A stretch of 61,805 nucleotides of DNA, taken from positions 1-61,805 of the IMG/VR virus record IMGVR_UViG_3300024999_000107. One strand, given 5' to 3'. Each line of letters starts with the position of its first letter. Position 1 is the first letter of the stretch. Source of the stretch: a virus (lineage: Duplodnaviria; Caudoviricetes). Of the stretch, positions 5,911-45,017 are shown one piece after another. The translations under genes were made by a program, and so were the position numbers. The notes under the pieces are model-generated. The model was given only the letters and a program-made list of their open reading frames with translations. It ran no database searches and was not told the origin of the DNA.

Positions 5911-6297
5911 ATGAAACAGGTAATTACTATAGAATAATTAGAAGAATTAACACATGAACAAAAAGATAGTTTAAGAGAATGGTGGAATCCTGAGATTCAC
6001 ACATTCTTTGTAGTAAATAATACTATTTATCCTTGTGAAGATGGAAAATGTTTTGGCAAAAATGAAGTGGCAAACGGAGGATGTATTTTTAAGAAGGATA
6101 AATGTTTACCATTATTAAATATAGGGCAGATGATTGAGATATTGTCTTCTTGTAATATTGACATAATGAGTAATTATTATAATGAATTTGAGTGGACGAT
6201 AACTTTTTATAAAAAGGAACATTATATATTTAGAAATATAGAATTGTGTAATTCCTTATGGGAAGGTGTAAAAATTGTTTTGAGTAATAAAGTATAA
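5911..6297 (+). pseudogene. Phage hypothetical gene with internal nonsense codon
   Basis: RBS+ATG at 5911, in-frame TAA at codon 9; the frame then continues into ORF 6067-6297. Confidence 0.65.
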
Positions 6298-6775
6298 AGG
6301 AGATGATTAACAAAATGTTCTATGCAGAAAATTATAAAATAGGTAAACAATTTAAGAATAAATTCACTAATTAAATATGGGAAGTTATAAGATTTGATGA
6401 AATGTTGCTGTTTGCAAAACAAGGATGTAGAGATTTATCTTATTCATTAAATGATGATTATTTTGAGGAATTATAAAGGAGGAAAACAACAATGATCGAA
6501 CAATACCCAAATGGAGCCAGAGTAATAACTTTAGGTGAAAATACGACTCAAATTAGTCAAATTGTACATAAAGACAGTCCAGAATCTTTAGGAATATGCT
6601 TTTGTAATAGTTTTACTGAAAATAATAAACCAGATGGCAATGTTGTAATTATTAATATCATCAATATTCAAGGTGTAATCAGCTACATCAAAGCATTGAC
6701 AGATATGTTAGCAACATGGGAAATTGAAGGTTAGCAACTGTTAACTAAAAGTTATAAAAAGTTATAAATTTACCA

Positions 6776-6826: not shown

Positions 6827-7486
6827 ATGAAATATTATAGCATACATGAATTTTCAAAGTTAATATCTAGAACTCCACAAACTCTTAGGAATTGGGATAA
6901 AAATGGAAAACTAACTCCCAATCATACTGGAGCTAATGGTTATAGGTATTACTCGCACCAACAATTAAAAGAAGTTCTTAACATTAAAGATGACTCAGAA
7001 AAAAGTAGAATAGTAATCGGATATTGTAGAGTTTCTTCTAATAAGCAAAAAGATGACTTGCAAAGACAAGTTGATAATTTGTCAAAGTATTTGGAATCTT
7101 TAAACAAACCATATGAGATAATCACTGATATTGGTAGTGGAATTAATTATAAGAAAAAGGGACTCAGGGATTTATTGAAGAAAATCAATAATAAAGAAGT
7201 AGACAAAATAATTATTCTTTGTAAAGATAGACTTCTTAGATTTGGTTTTGAATTAATAGAATATATGGCTAATCTTAATGGTTGTGAAATAGAGATATTA
7301 GATAGCACTGAGAAAACACAACAAGAAGAATTGGTGGAAGATTTAATACAAATTATCACTGTTTTTAGTTGTAGACTTCAAGGTAAACGAGCTAATAGAA
7401 CTAGAAAAATGATTGATGATTTAATCAAGGAAGGAGATGAGGAAATTGATCAAGGGAATCAAAGTGATGCTTGTACCGAACAATAA
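6827..7486 (+). CDS. tnpA: IS607 transposase (MerR-like HTH + serine recombinase)
   Basis: TPQTLRNWD...GYRYYS HTH; GYCRVSS...QKDDL, DIGSG, DRLLRFG. Confidence 0.95.
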   Translation: MKYYSIHEFSKLISRTPQTLRNWDKNGKLTPNHTGANGYRYYSHQQLKEVLNIKDDSEKSRIVIGYCRVSSNKQKDDLQRQVDNLSKYLESLNKPYEIITDIGSGINYKKKGLRDLLKKINNKEVDKIIILCKDRLLRFGFELIEYMANLNGCEIEILDSTEKTQQEELVEDLIQIITVFSCRLQGKRANRTRKMIDDLIKEGDEEIDQGNQSDACTEQ

Positions 7487-8627
7487 GCAAAATACTTTAA
7501 TGTTTCAAAATGCTGGAACCGCAAGGTGGGCATATAACTGGGCATTGGGTAGAGAAAAAGAGAATTATGCAGATGGCGGTAAATTTATTTCAGATAATGA
7601 TTTAAGAAAAGAATTAACTCAACTAAAGAAAGAAGAAAAATTTAGTTGGTTGAATAGTGTTTCTAATAATGTACCAAAACAAGCAATTAAAGATGCTTGT
7701 ACTGCTTATCAACGATTCTTTAAAGGGCAAGCTAAGTTTCCTAAATTCAAGACTCGAAAAAAATCTCCTCCTAAATTTTATCAAGACAATATTAAAATTC
7801 AATTCACATCAACTCATGTTAAATTTGAAGGATTTGCTAAAAGTACAAAGAAAAATAAACAGCAATTAAACTGGGTAAGATTAGCTGAACATGATAGAAT
7901 TCCTTTTGGTAAAGATGTTAAGTATATCAATCCAAGAATCTCACATGATGGTTTAAATTGGTGGATTAGCGTTGGAATAGAATATCCAGATAGTCTTGAA
8001 ACACCATTAAATGAAGGAATCGGGATTGATGTAGGCATTAAAGATTTAGCAATTTGTTCAGATAAAGTTGCTTATGGTAATATTAATAAAACCAAAAAGA
8101 TGAAAAGATTAGAGAAGCAAAAGAAACGTCTTCAAAGACAAGTATCTAGAAGATATGAAGCGAATCGTGATGGTTTGAAATATATTAAAACTAAGAACAT
8201 TATTAAACTGGAACATAAAATTAAATCAGTTCAACACGAACTTAATGGGGTAAGAGATAATTATCTCCAACAAACGACTACTGAGATCGTGAAAACCAAA
8301 CCATCTTTTGTATCGTTAGAGGATTTAAATATTTCTGGAATGATGAAGAATTGCCATTTATCTAAAGCAATTCAACAACAAAGCCTGTATGAGTTTGGAA
8401 GACAGATTAAATACAAAGCAGCATGGAATCATATTGAAGTTAGAATTGTAGATAGATGGTATCCTTCAAGCAAAACATGTCATGATTGCGGTAAAGTTAA
8501 CAAGTTATTAAATTTAAACGACAGAGAATGGGTTTGTACTGGCTGTGGAAGTATTTTAGACAGGGATTATAATGCTTCATTGAATCTAAGAGATACAGAT
8601 AAATACAAGATATTTAAAGTAGCATAA
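7437..8627 (+). CDS. tnpB: RNA-guided nuclease TnpB
   Basis: RuvC motifs GIDVGI, LEDL, DRDYNA; zinc finger CHDC...CTGC. Confidence 0.95.
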   Translation: MRKLIKGIKVMLVPNNKQNTLMFQNAGTARWAYNWALGREKENYADGGKFISDNDLRKELTQLKKEEKFSWLNSVSNNVPKQAIKDACTAYQRFFKGQAKFPKFKTRKKSPPKFYQDNIKIQFTSTHVKFEGFAKSTKKNKQQLNWVRLAEHDRIPFGKDVKYINPRISHDGLNWWISVGIEYPDSLETPLNEGIGIDVGIKDLAICSDKVAYGNINKTKKMKRLEKQKKRLQRQVSRRYEANRDGLKYIKTKNIIKLEHKIKSVQHELNGVRDNYLQQTTTEIVKTKPSFVSLEDLNISGMMKNCHLSKAIQQQSLYEFGRQIKYKAAWNHIEVRIVDRWYPSSKTCHDCGKVNKLLNLNDREWVCTGCGSILDRDYNASLNLRDTDKYKIFKVA

Positions 8628-8816
8628 ATACAAACAAAATACTCGGACGTTGCCGAGGAATTTAAGCCTTTGGAGTGTTAAGCCACTTGAGTAGTATTAG
8701 AAATAATATGAAAAAGAACACGATGAATGAGGAATGAAACATAGAGTTATAACTTATTTGTTTAATTTATAACTTCTTATAAGTTTTCAGTAACGGTGCA
8801 GAGATACAATTAGAGG
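8628..8816 (+). ncRNA. Predicted TnpB omegaRNA (reRNA) at the IS right end, guide from flanking DNA; 5' boundary uncertain
   Basis: Non-coding 169 nt between the tnpB stop and the right end; known architecture of TnpB elements. Confidence 0.6.
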
Positions 8817-31122: not shown

Positions 31123-32098
31123 GTGGAAATATTAAAAAATTATCAAGTTCCAACAGGTAATATATTAATCGTTCAAGGAGATAAAGGAAAATTAGAGTGT
31201 TTGTCTCTTGGGGATTATAGAAAAGACATAAATCTTAATCAACACAAAAAAGTTGAACACACTCAATTGTTACCACTGGAAGAAAAATGGGTAATTACAA
31301 TATCAACTCAATATGGTTGTAATAGTGCCTGTCTATTTTGTGATGTGCCTAAAGTTGGCAAAGGAATTAATGCAACATATAATGATTTACTGAATCAGAT
31401 ATTATTAAGTTTAGAGTTGCATCCAGAAGTAACTAGTACAAAACGTCTTAATGTTCATTATGCTAGAATGGGAGAACCTACATGGAATCCTAATATAATA
31501 GAGTTTACGAAGAATATGCGAAAAGAATTATACCCATACATAAATAGATCATTAATTCATCCTGTAATTTCAACAATGTTGCCAAATAAAAATAAGAATC
31601 TTATTCCATTTATAAATGATTGGATGGAAATTAAGAATTATGATTTTAGAGGCGATGCAGGATTACAATTCTCCATTAATTCAACTGACAATGAAGAGAG
31701 AAATAAAATGTTTTCTGGAAATTCTTTAAGCATTGAAGAAATATCAAAAATTGGAAAATATCTTGATATGCCAAAAGGACGTAAAATTACATTGAATTTT
31801 GCAGTAGCGGATTATACAATTGACGCAGAAAAACTAAGAGATTTATTTGCTCCTAATAAATTTATTATTAAAATTACACCAATGCATAAAACAACAGAAG
31901 CATTGAAACATGGTATCCAAACAATAGGAGATTATACAGAATCATATCCCTATATTCACCACGAAGAAGCGTTGAAGAAAGTTGGGTTTGATGTATTGAC
32001 TTTTATTGCATCATGGGAAGAAGATGCAGGAAGAATTAACGTGTGGTAATGCAATTCTTAGTGGGACTGAGCCGATGGTTGAATTTAAAATGGTTTAG
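31123..32098 (+). CDS. RlmN/Cfr-like radical SAM protein, C-terminus frameshifted
   Basis: ISTQYGCNSACLFC (CxxxCxxC), RMGEP, LQFSINS; deleting one A at 32038-39 gives ...AGRITCGNAILSG...* ending at 32098. Confidence 0.8.
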
Positions 32099-32395
32099 AA
32101 TTTTTAAAAAAGGTTTAATTGATTACTCGAAAGAGTTATTTTCTGGGAAAGGAATTTAAGAATTTTATGATTAAAAGTCTTAGACTATATAGTAGTGAAA
32201 ATGATATTAATTGTTCAACTTGCAGAAGGTCTTTTAAGAACTATTATTCAGAAATAGGTTATATAATGATATGTATGATGCATGATGCATGATCATATCA
32301 TAAAAGATCATGAAGTTTGTATTGATTGGGAATGTTGGTTAGATAATTAGATATCTTAAATAAAAACAGATTTCAAATAGTTAGAAAAGAGTTGG

Positions 32396-32632
32396 ATGTA
32401 CATGAAAGAAACACCAAACTGTAAAATATGTAAACTAAAATGTTGTGGTTGTCAAAGTTATAATACTTGTTTGATGAGAAAAGAAGAAAATTGTCATCAA
32501 ATAGAAGATTGTACATACATGGCAAGTAAATATTATTTATTTACTGAGTATTTGAGTTATGATAAAGGTATGAATATGAAGTTATATAATTATGATGAAG
32601 TGTGTAAAAGTGCTGTTGAGACTTGGAATTAG
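32396..32632 (+). CDS. Cys-rich hypothetical protein
   Basis: 78-aa ORF. Confidence 0.55.
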   Translation: MYMKETPNCKICKLKCCGCQSYNTCLMRKEENCHQIEDCTYMASKYYLFTEYLSYDKGMNMKLYNYDEVCKSAVETWN

Positions 32633-32644
32633 GAGTGATTACAA

Positions 32645-33001
32645 ATGGATTTAAGAATGTATATATTAGTCAATGAAGATATAAAGATTAATAAAGGAAA
32701 ATTGGCTGGTCAAGTAGGTCATGCGGTAGCAGTATATTTCTATAATACAATGGATGATAAAAATAATCTATACGATTCAACTATTGAATTATATATGACG
32801 AATTATCAAAAGAAAATTATTTTGTATGCTCCGCAATCTAAATTAGAGGAATTAGAAGAGAATAAATATATTACAATTAGAGATAGAGGATGGACAGATT
32901 TAGAACCTAATACATTAACTTGTGTTAATATGGGCATTATTGATTATGATGATTTTCCAAAAGAGTTAAATTGGTTAAAGAATTTAAAATTATGCAGATA
33001 A
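32645..33001 (+). CDS. Peptidyl-tRNA hydrolase, Pth2 family
   Basis: KGKLAGQVGHA...KKIIL...IRDRGWTDLEPNTLTC. Confidence 0.88.
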   Translation: MDLRMYILVNEDIKINKGKLAGQVGHAVAVYFYNTMDDKNNLYDSTIELYMTNYQKKIILYAPQSKLEELEENKYITIRDRGWTDLEPNTLTCVNMGIIDYDDFPKELNWLKNLKLCR

Positions 33002-33058
33002 GTTATCAATTCCAAACAAAGAATAGATTTATTTGATAAGAAAGGAATATAATTTTAA

Positions 33059-33805
33059 ATGGGAGTAAAAATTCAATTAAAAAGTGGAGCAGTACATAAT
33101 TACCCTGATGCAAAATTAACTAAAGAATTTTTTGAAGATTGGTTATTAAATAGTAAAACTTATTTTGATGCTTTAGAGAATGATGATACATGTGTTATTT
33201 ACAGAATTTCAGAAATAGAAAGTATTCAAATAGAAAAGTAAAAGGAGGAAATAAAATCATGTGTGAAAATAATAAAGGACATAAACATGTCATAATTAAC
33301 ATTCTACCTCAAAGTCCAGTTGCTTGGTTTTTTATAATGTGGATTGGTATATTTTTTGCTTGTGCAGGGGGAGGAAAATAATCATGGACTTAGCAGATGT
33401 AATTAAAAATTGTAAAGATAGGGAAGTATATAAAGCTACTTTCGCTATTGATGAGTATTGGTATATTACTAAAATTTCTGAATGTTTTTGGTATTGCGAT
33501 GAATATGGCAAAGGATTTGAAGATATATCAGCAGTGCCTTTGACTTATAGTAATTTGAGAGCAGAGTATGAAAAAGTTTAGAAAGGAACTTAATAATTAT
33601 GTTAAAATTTGAGGAAATGTTTCTCAAAGGGATACTAAAATATAATGAGGAACATAGAAATATTCCAGACCAATATTCTATAATGAAAGAGTGGGAAAGT
33701 TTCCTAGAAGAGTCTAGACGTTTCTTAGAGAAAACAAAAAATAGAAAACCAATAGTTGATTTTAAAGTCAGAGATGAATTAAAATTAAAATATGACAAAT
33801 TGTGA
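33059..33805 (+). CDS. Small hypothetical proteins (33059-33241, ~33259-33381, ~33384-33581, 33599-33805)
   Basis: ORFs with RBSs. Confidence 0.55.
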
Positions 33806-33827
33806 TCAAATGAGGTGATATAATCAC

Positions 33828-34409
33828 ATGATCGAATCAATACTCCTCTCATTCTTAATCTCTAAATCTAAAATCCATATAGAATTAGGGAAATTAAAAT
33901 TCCAAAAAGAATCATACAAACTGACTCCTATATTCAAACATTGGAGTATTTACCCCATGATTATTATGTCAATCTTCTATATCTATTTAGAATACTCAAC
34001 ATGGAACAATGATTACTCCTTGCTACAATACTCTAATATCTTCAGAATGGCATTTCTAAGCTCTTTTCTAGTCTTAGCAATACATTACAACCAAACAATG
34101 AAATTACTTCAAGGAATCATATTTATGTCGATTGGAACAGTTCTGAATAATATTGCTATCAAAGTAAATTCAAATCATATGCCGATATTCCCTTCCATTA
34201 CATTTTCTACTGGAGTTACAAATCCAGATAAATTCCTTGATTCATCAATGTATGGAGATTTTCATGTCATAGGGGATTATACAACAAAATTAATACCACT
34301 TTGCGATTTTATGGACAATGGAATAAGTACGTATAGTATCGGAGATATATTTATATTTTCTTTTGCATTTATTCTAATTTATGGTTCTGTTAAAGCATCT
34401 AATATTTAA
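33828..34409 (+). CDS. DUF5317-family membrane protein
   Basis: GTVLNNIAIKVNSNHMPIFPS...HVIG...TKLIPLCD...SIGD; multi-TM. Confidence 0.75.
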   Translation: MIESILLSFLISKSKIHIELGKLKFQKESYKLTPIFKHWSIYPMIIMSIFYIYLEYSTWNNDYSLLQYSNIFRMAFLSSFLVLAIHYNQTMKLLQGIIFMSIGTVLNNIAIKVNSNHMPIFPSITFSTGVTNPDKFLDSSMYGDFHVIGDYTTKLIPLCDFMDNGISTYSIGDIFIFSFAFILIYGSVKASNI

Positions 34410-34438
34410 CAAAAATAAAAATAATTTATAGCATGGAC

Positions 34439-34467
34439 TTGTAAACCACTTGACTTTCTGTTATAAT
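34439..34467 (+). promoter_or_regulatory. Promoter for receptor-agrD
   Basis: TTGTAA-17-TATAAT with TG extension. Confidence 0.6.
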
Positions 34468-34504
34468 TATCTAAAGATTATAAATAAAAGATAGAGAAAG
34501 AGAG

Positions 34505-35335
34505 ATGGGAATATTTATGCAAGGAATCACAAATATGTTCTTTAACTTGATTTTAGTAACTATACCGGAGCAATTCTTCTTAGTGGTTATGACATTAATA
34601 TTTCTAAAGAAATTTGGAATTTTAGATGTATTGATGTGGAAACAAAACATTAAGTGGATATTAATCCCAGTAATACCAATATCAATTATTGAGGATATAA
34701 ATACTTTTATAATTACAAATAATTTATTTAGTCAGATATTAACCATTCTAAATCTAGTGTTTTTTTACATATTAATGGTATATGTAGCAAAAAAGAATAG
34801 TGACAACTTCAATATGAGAGATTACAAAAAAATATTCGCAGGTTTAGCTATAAGTCTTTTAATATTAGGAGTTTTAGAATCTGTAACTGCTCCAATAATG
34901 TTATTATTATTGAATAAACCTTTAACATATATTAATGATAATGCGATTTGGAACTTTGTCGGAAGTTTTCCTTCAAGAACATTTGAATTTTTAATACTTA
35001 CATTTTTTATTATTAAAAACAATAATGCTGTAAAAATTCAAATGTTTGATTCAATATCTAGACACAATTCACTACTTGTTCCTATTACAACTTTCGTAGT
35101 TTTATCCAATATATTTGCAGTTTATCTTATAAAATTAGTTGGAGGAGATAAAATCCTAGACAAAGTTTCAACATTGGGGCAAGTAATTATATCAATGAGT
35201 ATTTTAGTTGTTCCTGCACTCGTATTATATCTAATATTAATGATAATAAACTTTTTCTTAGTTCGAGAAAAACAAGCCCATAAAGTTTACGAAAATCTTG
35301 CAACGCAAGATAAGGTAGTAGACTTTGATATATAA
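34505..35335 (+). CDS. Polytopic membrane protein, AgrC-sensor-like, lacking a histidine-kinase domain (putative AIP receptor)
   Basis: About 7-8 hydrophobic segments with intramembrane Glu; directly upstream of agrD; only a ~20-aa tail, no H-box or HATPase. Confidence 0.55.
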   Translation: MGIFMQGITNMFFNLILVTIPEQFFLVVMTLIFLKKFGILDVLMWKQNIKWILIPVIPISIIEDINTFIITNNLFSQILTILNLVFFYILMVYVAKKNSDNFNMRDYKKIFAGLAISLLILGVLESVTAPIMLLLLNKPLTYINDNAIWNFVGSFPSRTFEFLILTFFIIKNNNAVKIQMFDSISRHNSLLVPITTFVVLSNIFAVYLIKLVGGDKILDKVSTLGQVIISMSILVVPALVLYLILMIINFFLVREKQAHKVYENLATQDKVVDFDI

Positions 35336-35368
35336 TTAATTTTATATGGGTGAGAGGAGGTGAATACA

Positions 35369-35500
35369 ATGAAAGTAAAAATGTATACGGTTGTTGCTAG
35401 TCTATTGGGTTTGGTAGCAATGGGCCTTGTTCAAACTGCTTGTCGTTTCTGGTTTTTTCAACCAGAAGAAGATCAAACTCCAAAGTGCTTAAGTAAATAA
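35369..35500 (+). CDS. agrD: AgrD cyclic autoinducing-peptide precursor (43 aa, not in ORF track)
   Basis: RBS GAGGAGGTG; MKVKMYTVVASLLGLVAMGLVQTA-CRFWF-FQPEEDQTPKCLSK has a leader, a Cys-x4 ring and a [HYF]QPE..P tail like clostridial AgrD. Confidence 0.9.
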   Translation: MKVKMYTVVASLLGLVAMGLVQTACRFWFFQPEEDQTPKCLSK

Positions 35501-35510
35501 GTAAACATAA

Positions 35511-35538
35511 GTAGGGAGGATTTTATAGTCTTCCCTAC
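35511..35538 (+). terminator. Hairpin after agrD
   Basis: GTAGGGAGGA-ttttatag-TCTTCCCTAC. Confidence 0.65.
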
Positions 35539-35579
35539 AACTATAAAAATAATTATTTTATAAATATAGTATAAGACTG

Positions 35580-35609
35580 TTGACATTTGAATACACTTTA
35601 GTATATAAT
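35580..35609 (+). promoter_or_regulatory. SigA promoter for the HTH-mazF/agrB operon
   Basis: TTGACA-18-TATAAT, followed by an imperfect inverted repeat AATTAGATAA...TTATCTAATT. Confidence 0.65.
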
Positions 35610-35668
35610 TAGATAAATAAATTAATAAAATTAATTATCTAATTGCTAATAAAAAGGAGTGTATTGTT

Positions 35669-36463
35669 ATGTTAGACACATTGGTCAAAAAATTTAATAC
35701 AGAGGAAAATATTAAAAAGGATTTCAAAAAAGTAGCCAGTTATGTAATTAAAGCAAAAGGTAGCGAAAGATCAATCGGAGGTTTTGCTGGAGATTGTGGG
35801 GTTAGCGGGCAATATATGGAAAGTGTTATAAAAGGGAAAATAAATTGTTATCCCCAAATGCAGTTCCTAAAAGTTGTATCTGATAATTCCGAAGGCAGAG
35901 TTTCATTCAAGGATTTAACACTAGCTTGCGGTTATTCTAATTATTGTAATAATGACTTGGAACAAATTAAAAATATAAAAATTGAGAGAGGTGGAATTTA
36001 TTTTTGTAACTTTGGCGATAGTGGGATTGATAGTGAGATAACTGGTCATCGTCCAGTGTGTATAATTCAGAATTCTATAGGCAATGCACGAAGCAGTAAT
36101 ACCAAAGTTCTCACAATCACCAGTCGCAGTAAAGCAAAATTGCCGACGCATATAGAAATAAGTAGCAAGGAATATAAAGGCTTAACATCTGATTCTATTA
36201 TTTGTTGCGAAGTTGAAGACACTGTTAGTAAGAGAAGATTAATATCTGGATCTGGAGTAGTAGAAAAAATAGCACAGTGTTCTCCTGAATTACTACTTCG
36301 TATTTCTGTGGCAGTAGCCAAGGCAGATGGAATCATTGATTTAAATGTACCTGAAAAAATTGCCATTGAGGCTTTAATGAATTTGAATAGAGGAATAACT
36401 AAAACATATCAATTTGAAAATAATCGCAATCTAAATACAGCCAAACAATCAGTATTTGCTTAA
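35669..36463 (+). CDS. XRE-type HTH fused to a MazF/PemK endoribonuclease domain
   Basis: N-terminal KAKGSERSIGGFAGDCGVS...LTLACGY HTH; C-terminal ERGGIYF...SEITGHRPVCIIQNSIGN...TITS...KAKLPTHIEI aligns with Bacillus MazF/EndoA, catalytic Arg and Thr kept. Confidence 0.85.
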   Translation: MLDTLVKKFNTEENIKKDFKKVASYVIKAKGSERSIGGFAGDCGVSGQYMESVIKGKINCYPQMQFLKVVSDNSEGRVSFKDLTLACGYSNYCNNDLEQIKNIKIERGGIYFCNFGDSGIDSEITGHRPVCIIQNSIGNARSSNTKVLTITSRSKAKLPTHIEISSKEYKGLTSDSIICCEVEDTVSKRRLISGSGVVEKIAQCSPELLLRISVAVAKADGIIDLNVPEKIAIEALMNLNRGITKTYQFENNRNLNTAKQSVFA

Positions 36464-36477
36464 AGAAAGGAGTTTTA

Positions 36478-37101
36478 ATGATTTTACTTAATAATTTATC
36501 AAATCGTTTTGCAAAATACTTATCCACAATAGTACCAAACTCTAAATATCCTTCTATAAAAGATCAAATTGAAGTTTATGATTTTGCTATCAAGGGGGTT
36601 TTTGAAGAATTATCTACTATGATATTATTAATCTTATTTTCATTGGTTTTAGGTGTATTTACTCCTGTTATATTTATTGCATTAACTTTTATTTCATTAA
36701 GAAGTATAGCAGGAGGAATACACCTTTCAACGCATAGAAGATGCCAGATTATGTCTATAGTGATGTTTATTGGATCTGGATTGATTATGAAGTTGATATT
36801 AAGGTGTCTGTCTATTCAAAACATCTATTTTTTGTTGTTATTTTGTGTCTTAACGACGTTATATATGGTAGTTAGGTATATTCCTAGGGATTCAATAAAC
36901 AAACCGATTACAGATCCTTTAGAAAGATTAAAATTCAAAAGATTGTCATTGTATTATATTATAATATGGACAATTATAATGACAATCTTTCTCCACCTTA
37001 ATTTAAAAATAATTGTCATTGCTAGTTGTTTTGGATTATTGTTAGAATTATTTAATTGTAGTAAAATGGGACAGTTTATTTCCTTTATAAGTGATTCATA
37101 A
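36478..37101 (+). CDS. agrB: AgrB peptide-processing membrane protein
   Basis: FISLRSIAGGIHLSTHRRC (His/Cys dyad) and RYIPRDSINKPI motifs. Confidence 0.92.
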   Translation: MILLNNLSNRFAKYLSTIVPNSKYPSIKDQIEVYDFAIKGVFEELSTMILLILFSLVLGVFTPVIFIALTFISLRSIAGGIHLSTHRRCQIMSIVMFIGSGLIMKLILRCLSIQNIYFLLLFCVLTTLYMVVRYIPRDSINKPITDPLERLKFKRLSLYYIIIWTIIMTIFLHLNLKIIVIASCFGLLLELFNCSKMGQFISFISDS

Positions 37102-37208
37102 AAATTAGTCCTAAAGTCCTATGACATTAGACCTATAAATAAAATACAATCATGTCGAAAAACAGAACATAACGTGTCAACATTAAGAAATTATTGGTAA
37201 TTTTGTTC

Positions 37209-37237
37209 TTGATTCCTGAACAAATGTTCTATATACT
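37209..37237 (+). promoter_or_regulatory. LexA (SOS/Cheo) box inside a SigA promoter
   Basis: TTGATT-17-TATACT with GAAC-AAAT-GTTC at 37218-37229 in the spacer. Confidence 0.75.
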
Positions 37238-37318
37238 ATTATCAAGGAGGTATTAAAAGAATTCAGGTACTATTTGTAGAATATACCAAATATTAGAAAC
37301 TAAAGGAGAAGTGAATAA

Positions 37319-37756
37319 ATGGAATGTGTTAAAAAAATAGATATTAATAAGGAAAGATTTATATGGACTATTAAGGATCAAGACGGTAATTATTGTCAAA
37401 AAACTAGTATTTGCAAATTAAATAATAAAGAATGGATATACATACCTAGTGAAATTAATTCTAAAACATTTTCTCAAGAATCTAGAGGGTACATAACTAA
37501 AGAGTCGGCTGAAAAAGCATTGGATTTATTAAATAAAAAGAAAATAGTTGCAGGATTTGATCTTACATTTCATATTGAAAGACTTAATCTAGATGAAATA
37601 ATTGAAGAGAGTGTGCAATTTCAAGGGAATAATTTGGTCATATGTGATAAAGATTCTTCAACTAATCCTTGGGAAATTGTAAAAGCATGTATTTGTTCCT
37701 ATATGTGTTTATGTTGTCTTCATCAATGCTTGGGTATGATGACGAATGTAATTTAG
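37319..37756 (+). CDS. 145-aa hypothetical protein, predicted SOS-inducible, Cys-rich C-terminus
   Basis: RBS AAAGGAG; downstream of the LexA-boxed promoter. Confidence 0.7.
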   Translation: MECVKKIDINKERFIWTIKDQDGNYCQKTSICKLNNKEWIYIPSEINSKTFSQESRGYITKESAEKALDLLNKKKIVAGFDLTFHIERLNLDEIIEESVQFQGNNLVICDKDSSTNPWEIVKACICSYMCLCCLHQCLGMMTNVI

Positions 37757-37783
37757 TAATTAATAGACCAATTAATTATGCAA

Positions 37784-37828
37784 TATAATAAACTACTTCT
37801 TCTATTCTCCGTGGAGTAGTTTATTATA
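37784..37828. terminator. Long hairpin separating the SOS gene from the repressor operon
   Basis: TATAATAAACTACT...AGTAGTTTATTATA. Confidence 0.65.
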
Positions 37829-37847
37829 TAAAAATAAGTATTATTCC

Positions 37848-37912
37848 TTGACATTATTAGGGAAGTCATGATATATTATATTATATAAGTGTGTCATTAC
37901 TGTGACAATAAT
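37848..37912 (+). promoter_or_regulatory. Promoter of the yopQ/yopR-like operon with possible operator
   Basis: TTGACA-18-TATATT; downstream palindrome TGTCA-6-TGACA. Confidence 0.55.
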
Positions 37913-37920
37913 GCGAAGGA

Positions 37921-39315
37921 GTGATATTTATGCTAAAAGAAAAATCGGTTGAATTGATTCGTGGGCTTAATGTATTAATTGAAGATTATGCATCGAACGA
38001 CAAGGTAAGAAAAATAATTGTTGAAGAGTTTGACAAAAGAAATATGAAAGGTAGTTTAGCAGTTGGTATTCTAAATAAAAATAGAGAGTTATCCACGTTA
38101 GATATTGATGAAAGTAAAGATTTAATCATATTGTTTGTTTTTACTATGAGCATGTATAACGCACTAATGTTTAAGGAATCAGATGATAAAGAACCATTGG
38201 GGAAAATTGAAGAAATATTAATGATTAATCCTAAAAATTATTTCAATGAAATTGAGATTGAAAACTTAAATGATTATAAATTTGAAAAGAAAGTAGATAA
38301 AAAAGACGAAGTTATTGTTTTCCCTAAAATGAATAGAATTGCTACTGGATTTTATTCTGGATATATATCAGGAAAACAATTCGCCGAATTAGATGCTGGA
38401 AATGAACTCATCTATAATTTTAAAACGCAACGTGATCCACTTATTGATGTGTATGGAATGAAGCGAATACACTTAAACAAAACAAATGCAAAAGAAATTA
38501 GAGATGGTGTTCTTTCAGGAGATCAATTTCCAACTACTATTGTGGTAAATGTTCTTAAAGATGGTACTGATGAATTAGATTATGATGAAAAAACAGGTGA
38601 TTTATTTATTATTTCAGGAACTAAAAATCTAGTTGACGGATTTCATCGGAAGGTCGGAAATAGCTTGGCCTTCGCCATTAACCAAGATTTAGAGTTCAAC
38701 TGGTTATTAGTTGTAACAAATTACAGTGAAATTAGAGCGCAAAAATATATGGTAGAAATTAATAAACAACAAAAAATGAAGCAAGAGCATATTAAAAATA
38801 TGGATACTGCTAGTCTTGGAAATGTAGTCGTAGATGCAATTAAAGATATTGATACCTCTGAATTTGCAGATCAAATAAAGGATAACGATAAAGAAATTGG
38901 ACATTTTGAACTTGAACATTTCGGCATGGCTAAGAAGTCCACATTGGCATTAGCTATTGAAGAGTGTTATGGAGATAAATTAACTAATAAGCTTCAAGTA
39001 AGACCTATTGCAAAGCATATAGCAAATGTTATGGATTATATTATAGGACTGCATGTAGAAGAGTTTATGGAACATCCTGAAGCTACTCAGAAGGTAAGTT
39101 ATATCAATCATAAGAATATGTTCGCAGGATATATCGCTTTGTCTGAGCGATTATATGGTGTGAAAAAGTGGGAAGATATTCTTGAAGAAATTTTAAATAA
39201 GATAGATTTCAGTATGGAAAATACATTCTGGGATGATATTAAATTGAACAAAGATTCAGATATGAAAAAGTCTACACGGACAAATTTATATAAATTCTTT
39301 CAGAAATTAATTTAA
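37921..39315 (+). CDS. SPbeta YopQ/SroE-like protein (ParB/DndB-like DGxHR domain)
   Basis: 464 aa; IYNFKTQRD...LVDGFHR...INKQ; directly precedes the YopR homologue as in SPbeta. Confidence 0.75.
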   Translation: MIFMLKEKSVELIRGLNVLIEDYASNDKVRKIIVEEFDKRNMKGSLAVGILNKNRELSTLDIDESKDLIILFVFTMSMYNALMFKESDDKEPLGKIEEILMINPKNYFNEIEIENLNDYKFEKKVDKKDEVIVFPKMNRIATGFYSGYISGKQFAELDAGNELIYNFKTQRDPLIDVYGMKRIHLNKTNAKEIRDGVLSGDQFPTTIVVNVLKDGTDELDYDEKTGDLFIISGTKNLVDGFHRKVGNSLAFAINQDLEFNWLLVVTNYSEIRAQKYMVEINKQQKMKQEHIKNMDTASLGNVVVDAIKDIDTSEFADQIKDNDKEIGHFELEHFGMAKKSTLALAIEECYGDKLTNKLQVRPIAKHIANVMDYIIGLHVEEFMEHPEATQKVSYINHKNMFAGYIALSERLYGVKKWEDILEEILNKIDFSMENTFWDDIKLNKDSDMKKSTRTNLYKFFQKLI

Positions 39316-39330
39316 AGGAGATGCTTTAAA

Positions 39331-40362
39331 ATGATTGAAATTGCAAATGATGAATTACAAAATGAAGAAAAAGTGGAATTTAAAGTTGATCCTGAAGTTA
39401 AGGAAGAATTTTTAGAAAAACAATTAAAATCTACTAGAAGTTATTATCGTTATATTTTAAAACTTGCAGATGATTTTGAAGTAAAACTTGGTAAACCTAT
39501 TTACAACTTTAATACAGAAGAGAGAGACGAATTATTAATTGTGCAATATAAAAACAAAAACAAGTTCGCTTTTCAAACTGTTTTATCTCCATTAAAAACT
39601 TATGTAGATTTTTGCATTTCACCTAAGAATCTAGTACGACACAATGAAAACAGGTTTTCTAGCATTTTAACATCGAACTATAAATTTTATATTAATTCTC
39701 AAGCAAAAGAAAATTCCTATATTCCTCTATCAGAGTGTCGAGAATTTCAATCTAAATTAGCAAATTATCAAGATAGGGCAATTCTTGAATTACCAAGTCT
39801 AGGGGTTAGAGGCCGTACTGAAAAAGGCAATACTCTTGAAGAATTAGTAAACCTAAAAGAAGACGATATTAAATGGGAAAAGAAAAGATTATATCTTACC
39901 AAAAATAATGGCGAATTGAGGTGGATTGAAGTTGATGACTATACTTTAGATTTACTCAAAAAAACCATTAATCAAGATTTTTATATTTCAAATAATGGAT
40001 TAAAAACAAAACCCAATGAAAATGGGGTATACGAAAGTACAGATAAGGGAAGAATGATTAATAAAACTGAATATGTATTTAGAGTCCCAGGGAGCAACAA
40101 ACATGGCAAGGTCGATTATCAATTTTTTGCTAGTAGAATTCAACGGATGCAAAAATGGTTAGGAAAACCTTATATTAGTGTAAGTAATTTATACTTCTCT
40201 GCTATTATTGAATATGCTAAAAAGTTGAAAAAAGAGAAAGGCGAATTGACTAGAGAAGATTATCTTTCAATTAATGAGAGATTTGAATTTGGTGAAACTA
40301 AGGAGAAATATGTTTTTAAAACTAGAGAACTTATTGAATCGTATCTGAATGATGAGAGGTAA
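39331..40362 (+). CDS. SPbeta YopR/MrpR/SroF-like master repressor (tyrosine-recombinase fold)
   Basis: EVKEEFL...KPIYNF...YVDFCI...LANYQDRAILEL..GVRG...EELVNL parallels YopR as I recall it (EIKEKYL...LVNYQSKAVLRLLFEGVSG); no canonical HxxR. Confidence 0.8.
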   Translation: MIEIANDELQNEEKVEFKVDPEVKEEFLEKQLKSTRSYYRYILKLADDFEVKLGKPIYNFNTEERDELLIVQYKNKNKFAFQTVLSPLKTYVDFCISPKNLVRHNENRFSSILTSNYKFYINSQAKENSYIPLSECREFQSKLANYQDRAILELPSLGVRGRTEKGNTLEELVNLKEDDIKWEKKRLYLTKNNGELRWIEVDDYTLDLLKKTINQDFYISNNGLKTKPNENGVYESTDKGRMINKTEYVFRVPGSNKHGKVDYQFFASRIQRMQKWLGKPYISVSNLYFSAIIEYAKKLKKEKGELTREDYLSINERFEFGETKEKYVFKTRELIESYLNDER

Positions 40363-40367
40363 ATATT

Positions 40368-40775
40368 ATGCAAAATACGCTATTAGAAATGTGGAAAAGA
40401 TATAATTTGCTTCTTTCTTTTAAAGTGGAGATGAATAAACGTGGACACGCTAGTAAAGATTTATATTGTTTACATGCTCAATTATATCTCTTGATGGAAT
40501 TAATTGAAATTGAAAGTGAAAGTGTTTTGAGTTTATTATTACAAAAGACCTATTTTAGAATATTTCAATCAATAGATAAAGGAATTGAGTATTTGCCTGA
40601 AATTGTTTATGATCCAGAGGGATGGACGTTGAATAAAATTGAGGATGATAATGATGCTTGGATTAGCAAAGATGTTTTAATTTTCACTTGTAAATCAACA
40701 GTTGCTACATTTAGTAGGATATCTAGGAAAGAAACTGGATATAGATATGTTCTCAGTAGTAGCAAATGGCAATAA
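40368..40775 (+). CDS. Hypothetical protein
   Basis: 135-aa ORF coupled to the yopR-like gene. Confidence 0.6.
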   Translation: MQNTLLEMWKRYNLLLSFKVEMNKRGHASKDLYCLHAQLYLLMELIEIESESVLSLLLQKTYFRIFQSIDKGIEYLPEIVYDPEGWTLNKIEDDNDAWISKDVLIFTCKSTVATFSRISRKETGYRYVLSSSKWQ

Positions 40776-41194
40776 GAAGGGAATTGATATTAATGAACGT
40801 GGGAGAAAAGGTTTTTTTGTTTAAAGAAAGGTTGGGACATAAATATTTTGCTGATTTTGCTAGGTCTGCAAATGTTCCTCCTGCTTGGTTAAACGAAATT
40901 AAAGATAAAGAAGAGATTAAACAAATAAGTGACATGTCATATCTTATAAATCTTTGCTCATATTTAAATATGACAATTGATGATTTTTTAAGAAATGAGA
41001 ATGTCATAAAAGAAGAAATTTCTGACATTATTGATGTAAATTCAGAAGATATTGGTGTTTTAATCAACAATATGATAGTGTTATTAGGAAAGGAGGGAAT
41101 AAAAGTAGATGGTATGTTAATGAACGACAAAAGTAAAGAGATTTGTATTGACTCTTTACATGTCGTAAAAACGCTAGTTAAACAACATTTATAA
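40766..41194 (+). CDS. XRE-like HTH regulator (likely start 40793)
   Basis: MNVGEKV...DFARSANVPPAWLNEI...LCSYLNMTIDDFL. Confidence 0.7.
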   Translation: MAIRRELILMNVGEKVFLFKERLGHKYFADFARSANVPPAWLNEIKDKEEIKQISDMSYLINLCSYLNMTIDDFLRNENVIKEEISDIIDVNSEDIGVLINNMIVLLGKEGIKVDGMLMNDKSKEICIDSLHVVKTLVKQHL

Positions 41195-41214
41195 ATGAAG
41201 AGAGGTGAATAATC

Positions 41215-42072
41215 ATGGTATTCAAAGGAAGATCAACTGACACATTTGAGATGGATGATATAGAGGTTTATCAACTAGTCAAAAGTGGTTCTCTAAAATC
41301 ATTTCCTTCTGGATTTTGGGATGGAGTCGCAGGACTTCAAACTGCTAAGAAAATTCTAAACTATGTTTTCAAGGATATTTTAAATTGGACTATTGATGAT
41401 ATTAAACATAAAGTAAATAGAGAAATATTTGAAGAATATAAATTAGTTGGAATGATTTCAACAGTTTTTGATGGTAGTATGTATATTTGCTTAGGAGAAG
41501 CTTATCCAGAACTTAAAGAATGGGCAGATAAATTGTATCAAACAAATGAACACACTGATTTCGTTCATAGAAAATATACAGATGACGAATTGATTTATAT
41601 TCTCCAAGAAAAATCAAAAGAGCTAAACAGGATTCCTAAAGGAGTTGATATGAAAACGCCTAGTAGTGCTATTTATAGTAATAGATTTGGTTCATGGGAG
41701 AAGTCTTTAATGAAGGCAGGTTTGATCGAAGACATCTATAAAGATGTTGATTTTAGTAAAAACTCTAAAGAATCAGTTATATCTCATTTAAAGAAATTAT
41801 TTTCAGAAAAAGAAAGAGTATTGGATAAAAATGAGATATACGCCATTTATCCTGAAGGATTAATTAAAGAATATTTTGGGAATTACAATAAGGTTGAAAA
41901 AGTTATTGCAGTAGAGTATACTAAAAAAGACTTAATCAAAATATTGAAAAAGAAGAAAGAAAAGTTAGGAAGAATTCCAAGCAACAAAGACATGAAATTT
42001 CCAATGGCTATTGTATTTATAGATAAGTTTGGTAGTTGGCAGAAAGCAATTGATCAAATGGAGAAATCATGA
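41215..42072 (+). CDS. DUF4046-like protein with homing-endonuclease-associated repeats
   Basis: FPSGFW...LGEAYP; repeats YT.DELI..L...RIP...RFGSW. Confidence 0.65.
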   Translation: MVFKGRSTDTFEMDDIEVYQLVKSGSLKSFPSGFWDGVAGLQTAKKILNYVFKDILNWTIDDIKHKVNREIFEEYKLVGMISTVFDGSMYICLGEAYPELKEWADKLYQTNEHTDFVHRKYTDDELIYILQEKSKELNRIPKGVDMKTPSSAIYSNRFGSWEKSLMKAGLIEDIYKDVDFSKNSKESVISHLKKLFSEKERVLDKNEIYAIYPEGLIKEYFGNYNKVEKVIAVEYTKKDLIKILKKKKEKLGRIPSNKDMKFPMAIVFIDKFGSWQKAIDQMEKS

Positions 42073-44417: not shown

Positions 44418-45017
44418 ATGAAAATTACATTCAATAAAAACAACCCACATGAATTTATAAATAATATAAAATCAGTTACTAAAAATAAAAATGTATTGTT
44501 TGCTTGTGTTGGCACAGATAGAAGTACAGGCGATTCTCTAGGGCCAATTGTAGGAAGTTCCTTAGAATTATTAGGGTATAATGTTGTTGGTACTTTAGAT
44601 GACCCTTTACATGCTAGTAATATAGTTGAGCGTATGGAAATCTTGAAACAAATGAATTATGATTTGGTAATTGCTGTTGATGCTTGTTTAGGGAAAATAG
44701 ATAATATTAGCAACATTTATTTAAATTATTCATCATTAAAACCTGGAACAGGAGTTGGTAAAGAATTACCAGAAATCGGAGATTATTGTATTACCGGAGT
44801 TGTGAATATTTCAGGGTTCATGGAATACATGGTGTTGCAAAATACTAGATTATCTATAGTTATGAATATGGCAAAAATAATTGTTGAAATGATTAAAATA
44901 GCGATTCCATTAGAAGAAAATATTATTGAAGTTATACGTAATGGCAAAGAAAATAGTATGACTTTATTTGAGAAAGCAAAATCGATGTTTATTCCAAGAA
45001 AAATTAAATTGGCTTAA
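44418..45017 (+). CDS. yyaC: Spore protease YyaC (DUF1256)
   Basis: CVGTDRSTGDSLGPIVG...PLHA...IAVDACLG...LKPGTGVGKELP...LQNTRL. Confidence 0.93.
   Translation: MKITFNKNNPHEFINNIKSVTKNKNVLFACVGTDRSTGDSLGPIVGSSLELLGYNVVGTLDDPLHASNIVERMEILKQMNYDLVIAVDACLGKIDNISNIYLNYSSLKPGTGVGKELPEIGDYCITGVVNISGFMEYMVLQNTRLSIVMNMAKIIVEMIKIAIPLEENIIEVIRNGKENSMTLFEKAKSMFIPRKIKLA

Follow-up and report, generated by a model that had tools for sequence, protein, structure and literature searches.

Studies of phage communication have so far described systems that all pair a linear propeptide with an intracellular receptor (bioRxiv 10.1101/2021.07.15.452460). In phi3T, arbitrium acts by controlling MazF, whose activity promotes lysogeny (PMC10769878), and the yopM-yopR operon lies downstream of the arbitrium genes aimR, aimP and aimX (PMC8612738). 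In phages, agr genes had been observed only in the form of recent, host-like captures that have no link to a switch of this kind (PMC3901668), and two reviews (PMC11945551, PMC13389391) treat them only in the sense of phage phiCDHM1 or leave them out. On the chromosomal side, Clostridium perfringens strain 13 has a four-gene layout in which agrBD is transcribed together with two hypothetical genes that lie upstream of it (PMC2706048). Here, we describe a cassette of agr-type genes in the IMG/VR record IMGVR_UViG_3300024999_000107, a virus of the Caudoviricetes; the window of this report is that whole record of 61.8 kb. The cassette includes a phage MazF fusion and lies upstream of genes related to yopQ and yopR of SPbeta. 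Comparison of related loci indicates that it is probably a phage-owned, vertically inherited derivative of a clostridial DUF5317-X-agrB-agrD operon (X being a short membrane protein), rebuilt around MazF and fixed beside the YopQ/YopR module. The function that we favour, tentatively and a little short of calling it probable, is that of a phage-private peptide channel acting through phage MazF on the choice between lysis and lysogeny, as an analogue of arbitrium.

The gene order and positions that an initial annotation had given for 33828-40362 hold throughout, each of its genes being present at its place. The features of the region, with two genes that follow it, are these:

33828..34409, + strand: DUF5317 polytopic membrane protein, 193 residues (PF17248, E 3.3e-15)
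34505..35335, + strand: membrane protein of 276 residues with about seven transmembrane (TM) segments, here called TM276a (topology from hydropathy; no family)
35369..35500, + strand: agrD, with an alternative GTG start at 35360 (TIGR04223)
35511..35538, + strand: terminator-like hairpin 3' of agrD (dG -19.7 kcal/mol, z -5.0)
35580..35609, + strand: sigma-70-like promoter of the MazF-fusion/agrB unit (TTGACA-18-TATAAT, 12/12)
35669..36463, + strand: MazF fusion protein, 264 residues (PF02452 at residues 106-217, E 4.6e-17)
36478..37101, + strand: agrB (PF04647, E 5.2e-33)
37218..37229, + strand: GAACAAATGTTC, a LexA (Cheo)-type box within reach of the orf145 promoter-like site at 37209-37237, which it overlaps
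37319..37756, + strand: orf145, 145 residues with a Cys-rich or hydrophobic C-terminal end (conserved, no family)
37783..37829, + strand: terminator-like hairpin 3' of orf145 (dG -18.4 kcal/mol, z -8.0)
37848..37877, + strand: promoter-like site of the yopQ-yopR unit (TTGACA-18-TATATT with TG extension, 11/12)
37921..39315, + strand: YopQ-like protein, DndB/ParB-N-like (phrog_5732, E 2.7e-57)
39331..40362, + strand: YopR/MrpR-like protein with tyrosine-recombinase fold, of the SPbeta master-repressor family (PF22822, E 1.4e-12)
40368..41194, + strand: two conserved downstream genes of 135 and 142 residues (no family found)

Synteny with yopQ-yopR had been set beforehand as a test of the cassette, and in every related viral locus examined the two adjoin. 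With YopQ as the query, the cassette was found directly upstream in 4/4 related viral loci, in which YopQ and YopR are 69-92% identical to those of the window and the cassette proteins 25-54%. An alignment of AgrB used as the query recovered the full block in 14/14 viral loci and in one of two genome loci; one phage, sampled from four metagenomes, accounts for four of these viral loci, and two more are contigs that the YopQ query had recovered before. In nine viral loci, from six distinct phages, YopQ and YopR are only 21-32% identical to those of the window and the cassette is still adjacent, the orf145 homologue lying there after yopR. These related loci share ancestry, and their counts are not independent events. 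A scan of viral contigs with the single AgrB protein found nothing, whereas the alignment-based scan did find loci, and among deposited phages there was no match to the region by megablast or to AgrB and TM276 by tblastn (50,697 records for AgrB).

The order common to the relatives (numbered with L below) is a short MazF in most of them, DUF5317, TM276a, AgrD, MazF fusion, AgrB, in some a paralogue called TM276b, then YopQ and YopR, and the window carries a minimal version that lacks the short MazF and TM276b. DUF5317 is present in 14/15 cassette alleles, with E3, N107, N114, H146, D163, S170, G172 and D173 invariant. Two small contigs hold parts of the block, namely DUF5317-TM-AgrD-MazF fusion (L026) and AgrB-TM-AgrD (L009). 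Where the gap between AgrB and yopQ is larger, it is because homing-endonuclease genes were inserted there, and the gaps hold nothing else. Genes of the homing-endonuclease type occur at varying points of the cassette in L004, L006, L007, L008, L010, L011, L016, L019 and L021-L023; the inserts include DUF4379 treble-clef proteins (520-600 aa), an HNH protein (242 aa) and a GIY-YIG protein (258 aa), and in L023 such an insertion left only the last 98 residues of TM276b.

The layout of transcription signals is conserved as well. The hairpin after agrD is kept in 8/8 aligned loci, with compensatory change in at least one sequence at 6 of its 13 pairs, and that after orf145 is conserved with a compensatory change in L007. 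TTGACAT and the -10 box of the MazF-fusion promoter are conserved among relatives, as is the yopQ promoter-like site in 5/5 aligned loci. An Rfam search of the region gave no match. The two downstream genes of 135 and 142 aa are 54-82% identical in loci that share the yopQR allele of the window, and travel with that allele.

The phi3T genome has aimR-aimP-aimX followed by three small genes, yopP, yopQ and yopR, and the cassette therefore sits in the place of aimR-aimP-aimX, the arbitrium position, as had been proposed from the window alone. The accompanying claim that no aimR- or aimP-like gene is visible agrees with our searches, in which phi3T AimR had no match in the window or in five related records, three of them rated complete, by a single-sequence search of low sensitivity; Pfam domains of the tetratricopeptide repeat (TPR) type were absent among the open reading frames (ORFs) scanned.

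The agrD gene at 35369-35500, which the program-made ORF list had missed, is confirmed by TIGR04223 with 28.9 bits, the NCBIfam cut-off being 19. The predicted ring of its product is CRFWF, followed by FQPEED..PKC, and the protein has the hydrophobic leader, the ring Cys/Ser four residues before the cleavage site and the charged, Pro-containing tail of an AgrD. The pattern [SC]-x4-[YHF]-Q-[PS] fits 15/15 AgrD alleles, and the frame around the ring is constant (A/S-[S/C]-x4-[YHF]-Q-P/S-x-x-P/L-x-C). Each of the 15 alleles has one agrD, as does the complete 178-kb relative, which has exactly one. Within this frame the 15 alleles encode 15 rings: CRFWF, SYFIS, CFAVW, SMFFS, SMVVW, SWLWS, SWLGA, SWAFS, SWFFA, SWLFS, SWLFT, SAMWT, SWFWL, SAMWS and SAFWT. 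The ring nucleophile is Ser in 13/15 of the phage AgrDs and Cys in 2/15, the phage of the window being one of the two Cys cases, whereas the chromosomal AgrDs of the DUF5317-operon type have Cys in 11/11. The initial annotation spoke of a thiolactone peptide; most relatives have Ser at this position, and a lactone rather than a thiolactone is therefore predicted for them. The use of Ser in the phages and Cys in the chromosomes would be compatible with a channel insulated from host agr.

The AgrB domain (PF04647) scores 114 bits and covers model positions 16-182 of 185. Its residues R75, G80, H82 and C89 are invariant in 26 aligned sequences and correspond, at a constant offset of +5, to R70, G75, H77 and C84 of Staphylococcus aureus AgrB, which are needed for proteolysis (PMC10196373). 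With these catalytic residues intact and an AgrD of canonical form, the phage would be expected to make a five-residue (thio)lactone peptide.

The nearest chromosomal counterpart of the cassette is found in clostridia. Among the DUF5317 matches in 40 Clostridiaceae genomes, 9/15 lie upstream of a same-strand agrB at a distance of no more than 1.2 kb, and these operons continue from DUF5317 through X (150-161 aa, five TM segments, IPE motif) to AgrB and finally AgrD. A tree built from 45 rows of AgrB groups all 15 phage sequences with that of L009 in one clade (support 98/95), which is sister, with weak support (80/63), to 13 AgrBs of DUF5317/X operons, AgrC-adjacent AgrBs falling on the other side. 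Wholesale capture of a host agr locus, which by the initial annotation would count against its proposal, is not what the tree indicates, at least not as a recent event: the phage AgrBs are monophyletic, and this speaks for one old acquisition and later vertical diversification in the phage lineage. The description of the system as an independently built analogue holds relative to arbitrium, but not relative to agr, because its parts descend from the clostridial four-gene agr operon. The X proteins (motifs IPE and LPIHYGVH; L058-L077, L103-L106) themselves align with AgrC-type sensor domains at hhalign values of 69-75%, and X could be an overlooked part of orphan clostridial agr operons, serving signalling or maturation.

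This ancestry bears on an explanation that we consider fairly unlikely, in which a prophage makes an analogue of the autoinducing peptide (AIP) that activates or blocks agr/VirS-type sensing of the host, DUF5317 and TM276 serve maturation or export, and the site beside the repressor only reflects prophage expression. DUF5317, TM276/X, AgrB and AgrD do all descend from a chromosomal operon type that has no receptor, the host metagenome-assembled genome (MAG) of L008 has a DUF5317-X-agrB-agrD operon of its own with a ring similar in composition to that of the prophage, and a host-directed role of phage agr genes has been proposed in the case of phiCDHM1 (PMC3901668). Fifteen different rings in closely related, co-occurring phages are, however, hard to square with a shared host receptor, and the cassette has stayed linked to two MazF genes and to yopQR in loci that have diverged deeply. 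Moreover, TM276b has no peptide to process, and TM276 lacks the conserved His pair of X.

TM276a itself has no match in Pfam, NCBIfam, PHROG or PDB sequences. Hydropathy and the positive-inside rule give it about seven TM segments with the N-terminus outside and the C-terminus inside; its cytoplasmic loop 1 is conserved, and its acidic C-tail ends about 28 residues past the last TM segment. Pfam finds no DHp or HATPase_c_5 kinase domain in it, and a truncated AgrC with kinase-bearing relatives is ruled out for the best 150 of the 214 matches, which are all at most 326 aa long. A family profile built from 102 sequences aligns with X at hhalign values of 95.8-96.9% (E 7e-9 to 2e-10) over 137-164 columns with 20% identity, a reversed control giving 0.2-0.6%, and TM276 is therefore an enlarged X without the His pair: X has about 155 aa and five TM segments, the phage TM276 about 270 aa, seven TM segments and the acidic tail. 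The same family aligns at 83-89% with the N-terminal 235 residues of 22 HATPase_c_5 kinases and at 59-85% with the sensor domains of the nine of these kinases that are agrB-adjacent, reversed controls giving at most 1.8% and AgrB as a control at most 0.9%; two groups of such kinases aligned with each other give 85-86%. Most of the family is viral, and so are 76% of the nearest Atlas cluster. Its presence in only 3/292 of the Clostridiaceae genomes scored, with no more than eight candidates scored per genome, rules out a common chromosomal agr partner.

Conservation along TM276a is not uniform. Column identity is 0.55-0.58 in the N-terminus, TM1 and loop 1 and 0.51 in the C-tail, and 0.23-0.42 in TM2-TM7; a variable core with conserved cytoplasmic faces is what one would expect from a sensor that varies while its output face stays constant. 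The paralogue TM276b is far more conserved at the same six loci (58.5% vs 34.8% for TM276a) and has no peptide gene of its own, and a conserved, peptide-less protein would fit a sensor better than a maturation enzyme. Taking these alignments and patterns together, TM276a could well be the receptor, although we stop just short of an even judgement; that it is instead a maturation or export partner is almost as likely.

Diversification of the peptide and of its neighbour can be followed among co-occurring phages, at least 7 of the 15 ring alleles being on contigs of one metagenome. TM276a is the most variable of the cassette proteins, with a mean pairwise identity of 40%, against 48% for AgrB, 50% for DUF5317 and 54.5% for the MazF fusion. 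Three pairs of loci are telling. Between L008 and L017, AgrB is 100%, the MazF fusion 97% and DUF5317 92% identical, TM276a only 67%, and the rings differ at 2/4 positions. Between L019 and L022, TM276a is 91% identical within flanks of 69-80%, and the rings differ at one position. Between L004 and L011, the MazF fusions are 92% identical, the TM276a proteins 43%, and the rings different. These comparisons support a ring that diversifies like a private signal. The TM276a stop often overlaps the agrD start (L019, L022, L023), and a peptide gene translationally coupled in this way to a hypervariable multi-TM gene could also belong to a bacteriocin-like cyclic peptide with TM276a as a polytopic immunity protein. 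We hold this to be highly improbable: the peptide fits the AgrD family fully, including the AgrB recognition tail, and AgrB is intact. Furthermore, five-residue AIP rings are not known to have an antimicrobial role.

The product of the MazF fusion gene consists of an N-domain of about 100 aa, a MazF/PemK domain at residues 106-217 and a C-terminal extension with a conserved tail. PF02452 matches it with 62.6 bits (cut-off 23.1), as it does 15/15 family members. The MazF part of the earlier name HTH-MazF is thus well founded; its helix-turn-helix (HTH) part is less so, as Pfam finds no such domain in any of the 15 members, and the N-domain has XRE/SinR-type HTH spacing with only weak matches to SinR structures (E 0.7-1.2) and SlrR (E 0.13). 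The fusion and the short MazF align to the Bacillus MazF structures 4HKE, 4MDX and 1NE8 at E of about 1e-15, and 7BXY is also aligned. Among 25 MazF sequences R128 is invariant and a Thr or Ser is kept at the aligned Thr position, and the positions R-G, S, R-P, N, P-T-H, S and E are invariant across fusion and short MazF. We take the conserved Arg and Thr/Ser to be catalytic, as counterparts of R25 and T48 of Bacillus subtilis MazF, and by this comparison the phage MazF proteins look catalytic. The fusion family comprises 47 protein clusters, all of them metagenomic or from a Clostridium MAG, and in a tblastn search of deposited phages it had matches to its MazF domain only, 0/60 records covering 80% or more of the query. 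A conserved N-(N/Q)-V-A-Y-A(-N/R) tail closes both the short MazF and the fusion (36440-36463 in the window; L004-L023) and is reminiscent of a C-terminal degradation tag or an autoinhibitory peptide. A scheme with one MazF per TM276 paralogue was ruled out, seven alleles having two MazFs and one intact TM276.

No conserved small ORF was found upstream of the short MazF in 13 loci, nor a MazE-like antitoxin ahead of it, and the fusion is preceded by agrD and not by an antitoxin gene, a layout other than that of a type II toxin-antitoxin pair. Two MazF homologues with catalytic residues intact and no conserved antitoxin gene, in a family that PHROG labels MazF-like growth inhibitor, invite the explanation that the cassette is a toxin module under control of the peptide and serves to maintain the prophage, in kin discrimination or in superinfection exclusion. 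Its weapon would then be the MazF RNases, its brake TM276 and/or the fusion N-domain and the peptide a signal of kin to lysogens, the lysis-lysogeny decision being unaffected. Extracellular death factor (EDF) offers a reported precedent for a peptide that enhances MazF activity, and hypervariable pairs of peptide and partner are typical of kin-recognition systems. Nevertheless, none of the 11/11 proteins scanned matched a PADLOC defence family, and the invariable site beside the repressor, together with the precedent of arbitrium and MazF, points to the switch itself. We judge such a module quite unlikely.

The repressor genes that flank the cassette are recognisable as relatives of those of SPbeta. 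Over 380 aa, the YopQ-like protein shares 23% identity with phi3T YopQ (E 8e-19), with a DndB match below the cut-off (E 5e-5). The YopR-like protein matches PF22822 (MrpR_N_CB) with 48.6 bits (cut-off 27) and phrog_5830 with E 7.9e-48, and by tblastn is 27% identical to phi3T/SPbeta yopR at 88% coverage, Geobacillus virus E3 also being matched. As in the E3 and phi3T records, yopQ lies directly upstream of yopR. No repeated operator shared by the promoters is evident in 33000-41500.

Between agrB and yopQ in the window lies orf145, whose LexA box was correctly read in the initial annotation: it is located 90 nt ahead of the gene and is the sole exact GAAC-N4-GTTC in the window. Alone this box is weak, because 27/100 shuffles give at least one exact box. 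However, LexA-type boxes with at least 7/8 core matches occur within 260 nt upstream of the orf145 homologue in 11/14 loci, where 0.04 per 260 nt would be expected from 28 matches in 181,697 positions, and they recur also where the homologue lies behind yopR. Thus orf145, which has homologues in 14/15 alleles either before yopQ or after yopR, would be a conserved SOS-controlled member of the switch region, probably under LexA control. How SOS removes the YopR repressor of SPbeta has been stated to be unknown (PMC8612738), and we infer that orf145 is a candidate SOS-induced antirepressor or induction factor. Between orf145 and phi3T_93/YopN there is no similarity. The leader of orf145 (37238-37318) is highly conserved in five loci and holds two Shine-Dalgarno-like runs, AAGGAGGT and AAAGGAGAAGTGA; as RNA, it folds no better than shuffled sequences do (z +1.4), and it might contain a tiny upstream ORF or a site for protein binding.

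In the arbitrium-like reading that we favour, the peptide would be a private, phage-specific signal reporting the number of cells that carry, or are infected by, the same phage. Its reader would be the co-varying TM276a, which is related to X and to AgrC-type sensor domains but has no kinase; through its conserved cytoplasmic loop and acidic tail, TM276a would set the activity of the phage MazF RNases, that is, of the fusion and, in most relatives, of the short MazF. MazF activity would bias the switch towards lysogeny, as does host MazF under arbitrium in phi3T, and orf145 with its LexA box would be a separate input, likely an SOS-dependent induction trigger acting on the YopR-type repressor. 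A more specific version is rather doubtful: the kinase-less, seven-helix TM276a would sense the peptide outside the cell in an arbitrium-like census, its acidic tail would be a membrane-tethered brake on MazF, and the peptide would free MazF, pushing the phage to lysogeny or holding it there, while TM276b may hear host agr and X would be a missed sensing component.

Several points weigh against a peptide channel to the repressor. The function is deduced from sequence comparison. The label receptor-like, given to TM276a in the initial annotation, stands as a remote profile similarity to AgrC-type sensor domains and not as a direct match: an HMM (hidden Markov model) search of the TM276 profile against 22 AgrC-type kinases gave nothing significant, and a profile of the nine phage TM276 sequences alone scores 2-8% against kinase sensors. 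The closest relative of TM276 is X (hhalign 96-97%), whose operons have their receptor elsewhere, and X could serve peptide maturation or export; in C. perfringens, VirS has been reported as the peptide receptor. The check for covariation of AIP and receptor gave a divided answer, since the locus pairs are telling and partial Mantel tests on the 15 related loci do not single out TM276a (TM276a and ring given MazF, rho 0.43; MazF and ring given TM276a, rho 0.38; both p 0.001), and the covariation argument therefore rests on the locus pairs. The N-domain of the fusion is no more than possibly an XRE/SinR-like HTH. The complete relative has neither a visible attachment junction nor, among the 73/81 ORFs of at least 170 aa scanned, a large serine recombinase, and genes beside lysogeny modules are often host-directed 'morons'.

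The lineage that carries the cassette appears to be one of large phages of Bacillota. The window has an estimated completeness of about 35% (CheckV) and a G+C content of about 28%, and its + strand carries nearly all genes; among the others are YopX, a C5 methylase, an NAD ligase, GmrSD-like proteins and many homing endonucleases, which fit a phage of this kind. Related contigs measure 150-230 kb, three of them being rated complete. One cassette-carrying contig is assigned to a Clostridium sp. MAG, and the host is Clostridium sp., known from this one MAG only. The repressor homologue, the LexA box and the MAG contig suggest a temperate lifestyle, and an episomal prophage would likewise be compatible with the ParB-N-like domain of YopQ. 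The scan of the complete 178-kb relative (L093) showed only a small protein of 225 aa of the tyrosine-integrase family, encoded at 6014-6691.

Other elements of the window lie further from the switch. An IS607/IS605-type element at 6827-8734 consists of a MerR-HTH serine resolvase (6827-7486), an OrfB/TnpB with a Cas12f-like TNB domain (7437-8627) and, just 3' of the latter, a RAGATH-18 RNA (8667-8734; 55.7 bits, cut-off 44.9); the 178-kb relative has three further OrfB copies. Near the switch region (31123-33001, 44418-45017) are genes for a radical-SAM-like protein (below cut-off), a PTH2 peptidyl-tRNA hydrolase, whose homologues are again found upstream of the cassette in relatives, and a DUF1256 protein weakly similar to germination protease. 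GC skew drops over 34001-38000 to 0.13-0.18, compared with about 0.3 elsewhere, and AT skew to 0.03 from about 0.12, likely owing to the run of membrane-protein genes rich in Phe, Leu and Ile codons.

Our literature search, in which subscription journals were poorly covered, found no published phage module of agr, MazF and repressor genes, and likewise no paper on DUF5317. The module described here is agr-derived, old, phage-specific and diversifying, and is locked to repressor genes together with a phage MazF, a linkage that suggests a new way in which viruses communicate when choosing between killing and dormancy. If the module steers this choice, viral census taking would have evolved at least twice with unrelated chemistry, converging on MazF, and a kinase-free route from a membrane sensor to a ribonuclease would be defined, giving also a handle on what the two additional genes in clostridial agr operons do. 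With its LexA box, orf145 suggests a testable route by which SOS could reach YopR-type repressors.

Compared with the clostridial orphan agr operon of the CPE1563-CPE1562-agrB-agrD type of C. perfringens, the cassette shares DUF5317, an IPE-motif polytopic protein, AgrB, AgrD and the AgrD tail Y/H-Q-P-x-x-P-x-C, the comparison having been made with chromosomal relatives and not with CPE1563 and CPE1562 themselves. It differs in its permuted order, in which agrD follows TM276 and agrB follows the MazF fusion, in the added MazF genes, in the enlargement of X with loss of the His pair and in the replacement of Cys by Ser in 13/15 peptides. The agr3 locus of the C. difficile myovirus phiCDHM1 is likewise an agrB and agrD in a phage of a clostridial host without agrA, but it has an AgrC kinase of 453 aa and lies beside an endolysin gene, and its recent transfer was proposed because it closely resembles host agr3 (PMC3901668); here there is no kinase, and the linkage is to MazF and yopQR.

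The agr groups of S. aureus resemble the cassette in having a peptide and an adjacent membrane partner, both hypervariable, inside conserved flanks, and a five-residue ring. Ser-lactone variants of the peptide exist in staphylococci. Unlike in S. aureus, there is here no histidine kinase or response regulator, and the proposed output is a ribonuclease. With the EDF-MazF systems of Escherichia coli and B. subtilis, the cassette has in common a small extracellular peptide coupled to MazF activity; EDF, however, is a linear peptide made without AgrB and has been reported to bind directly to MazF, whereas the MazF of the cassette fails to follow the peptide in key pairs (L004 vs L011).

Arbitrium of SPbeta/phi3T shares with the cassette a phage-encoded peptide of phage-specific sequence, genes located just upstream of yopQ-yopR, a MazF ribonuclease as the lysogeny-favouring effector (reported for arbitrium in PMC10769878, proposed here) and a separate SOS input (PMC8612738 for SPbeta). 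No homologue of AimR, AimP or AimX was found in the searches described above. The arbitrium signal is a linear hexapeptide bound by an intracellular TPR receptor, whereas the cassette is predicted to make an AgrB-cyclised (thio)lactone that would be sensed outside the cell by a membrane protein, and in place of the MazF of a Bacillus host it has a MazF encoded by the phage itself, in Clostridium.

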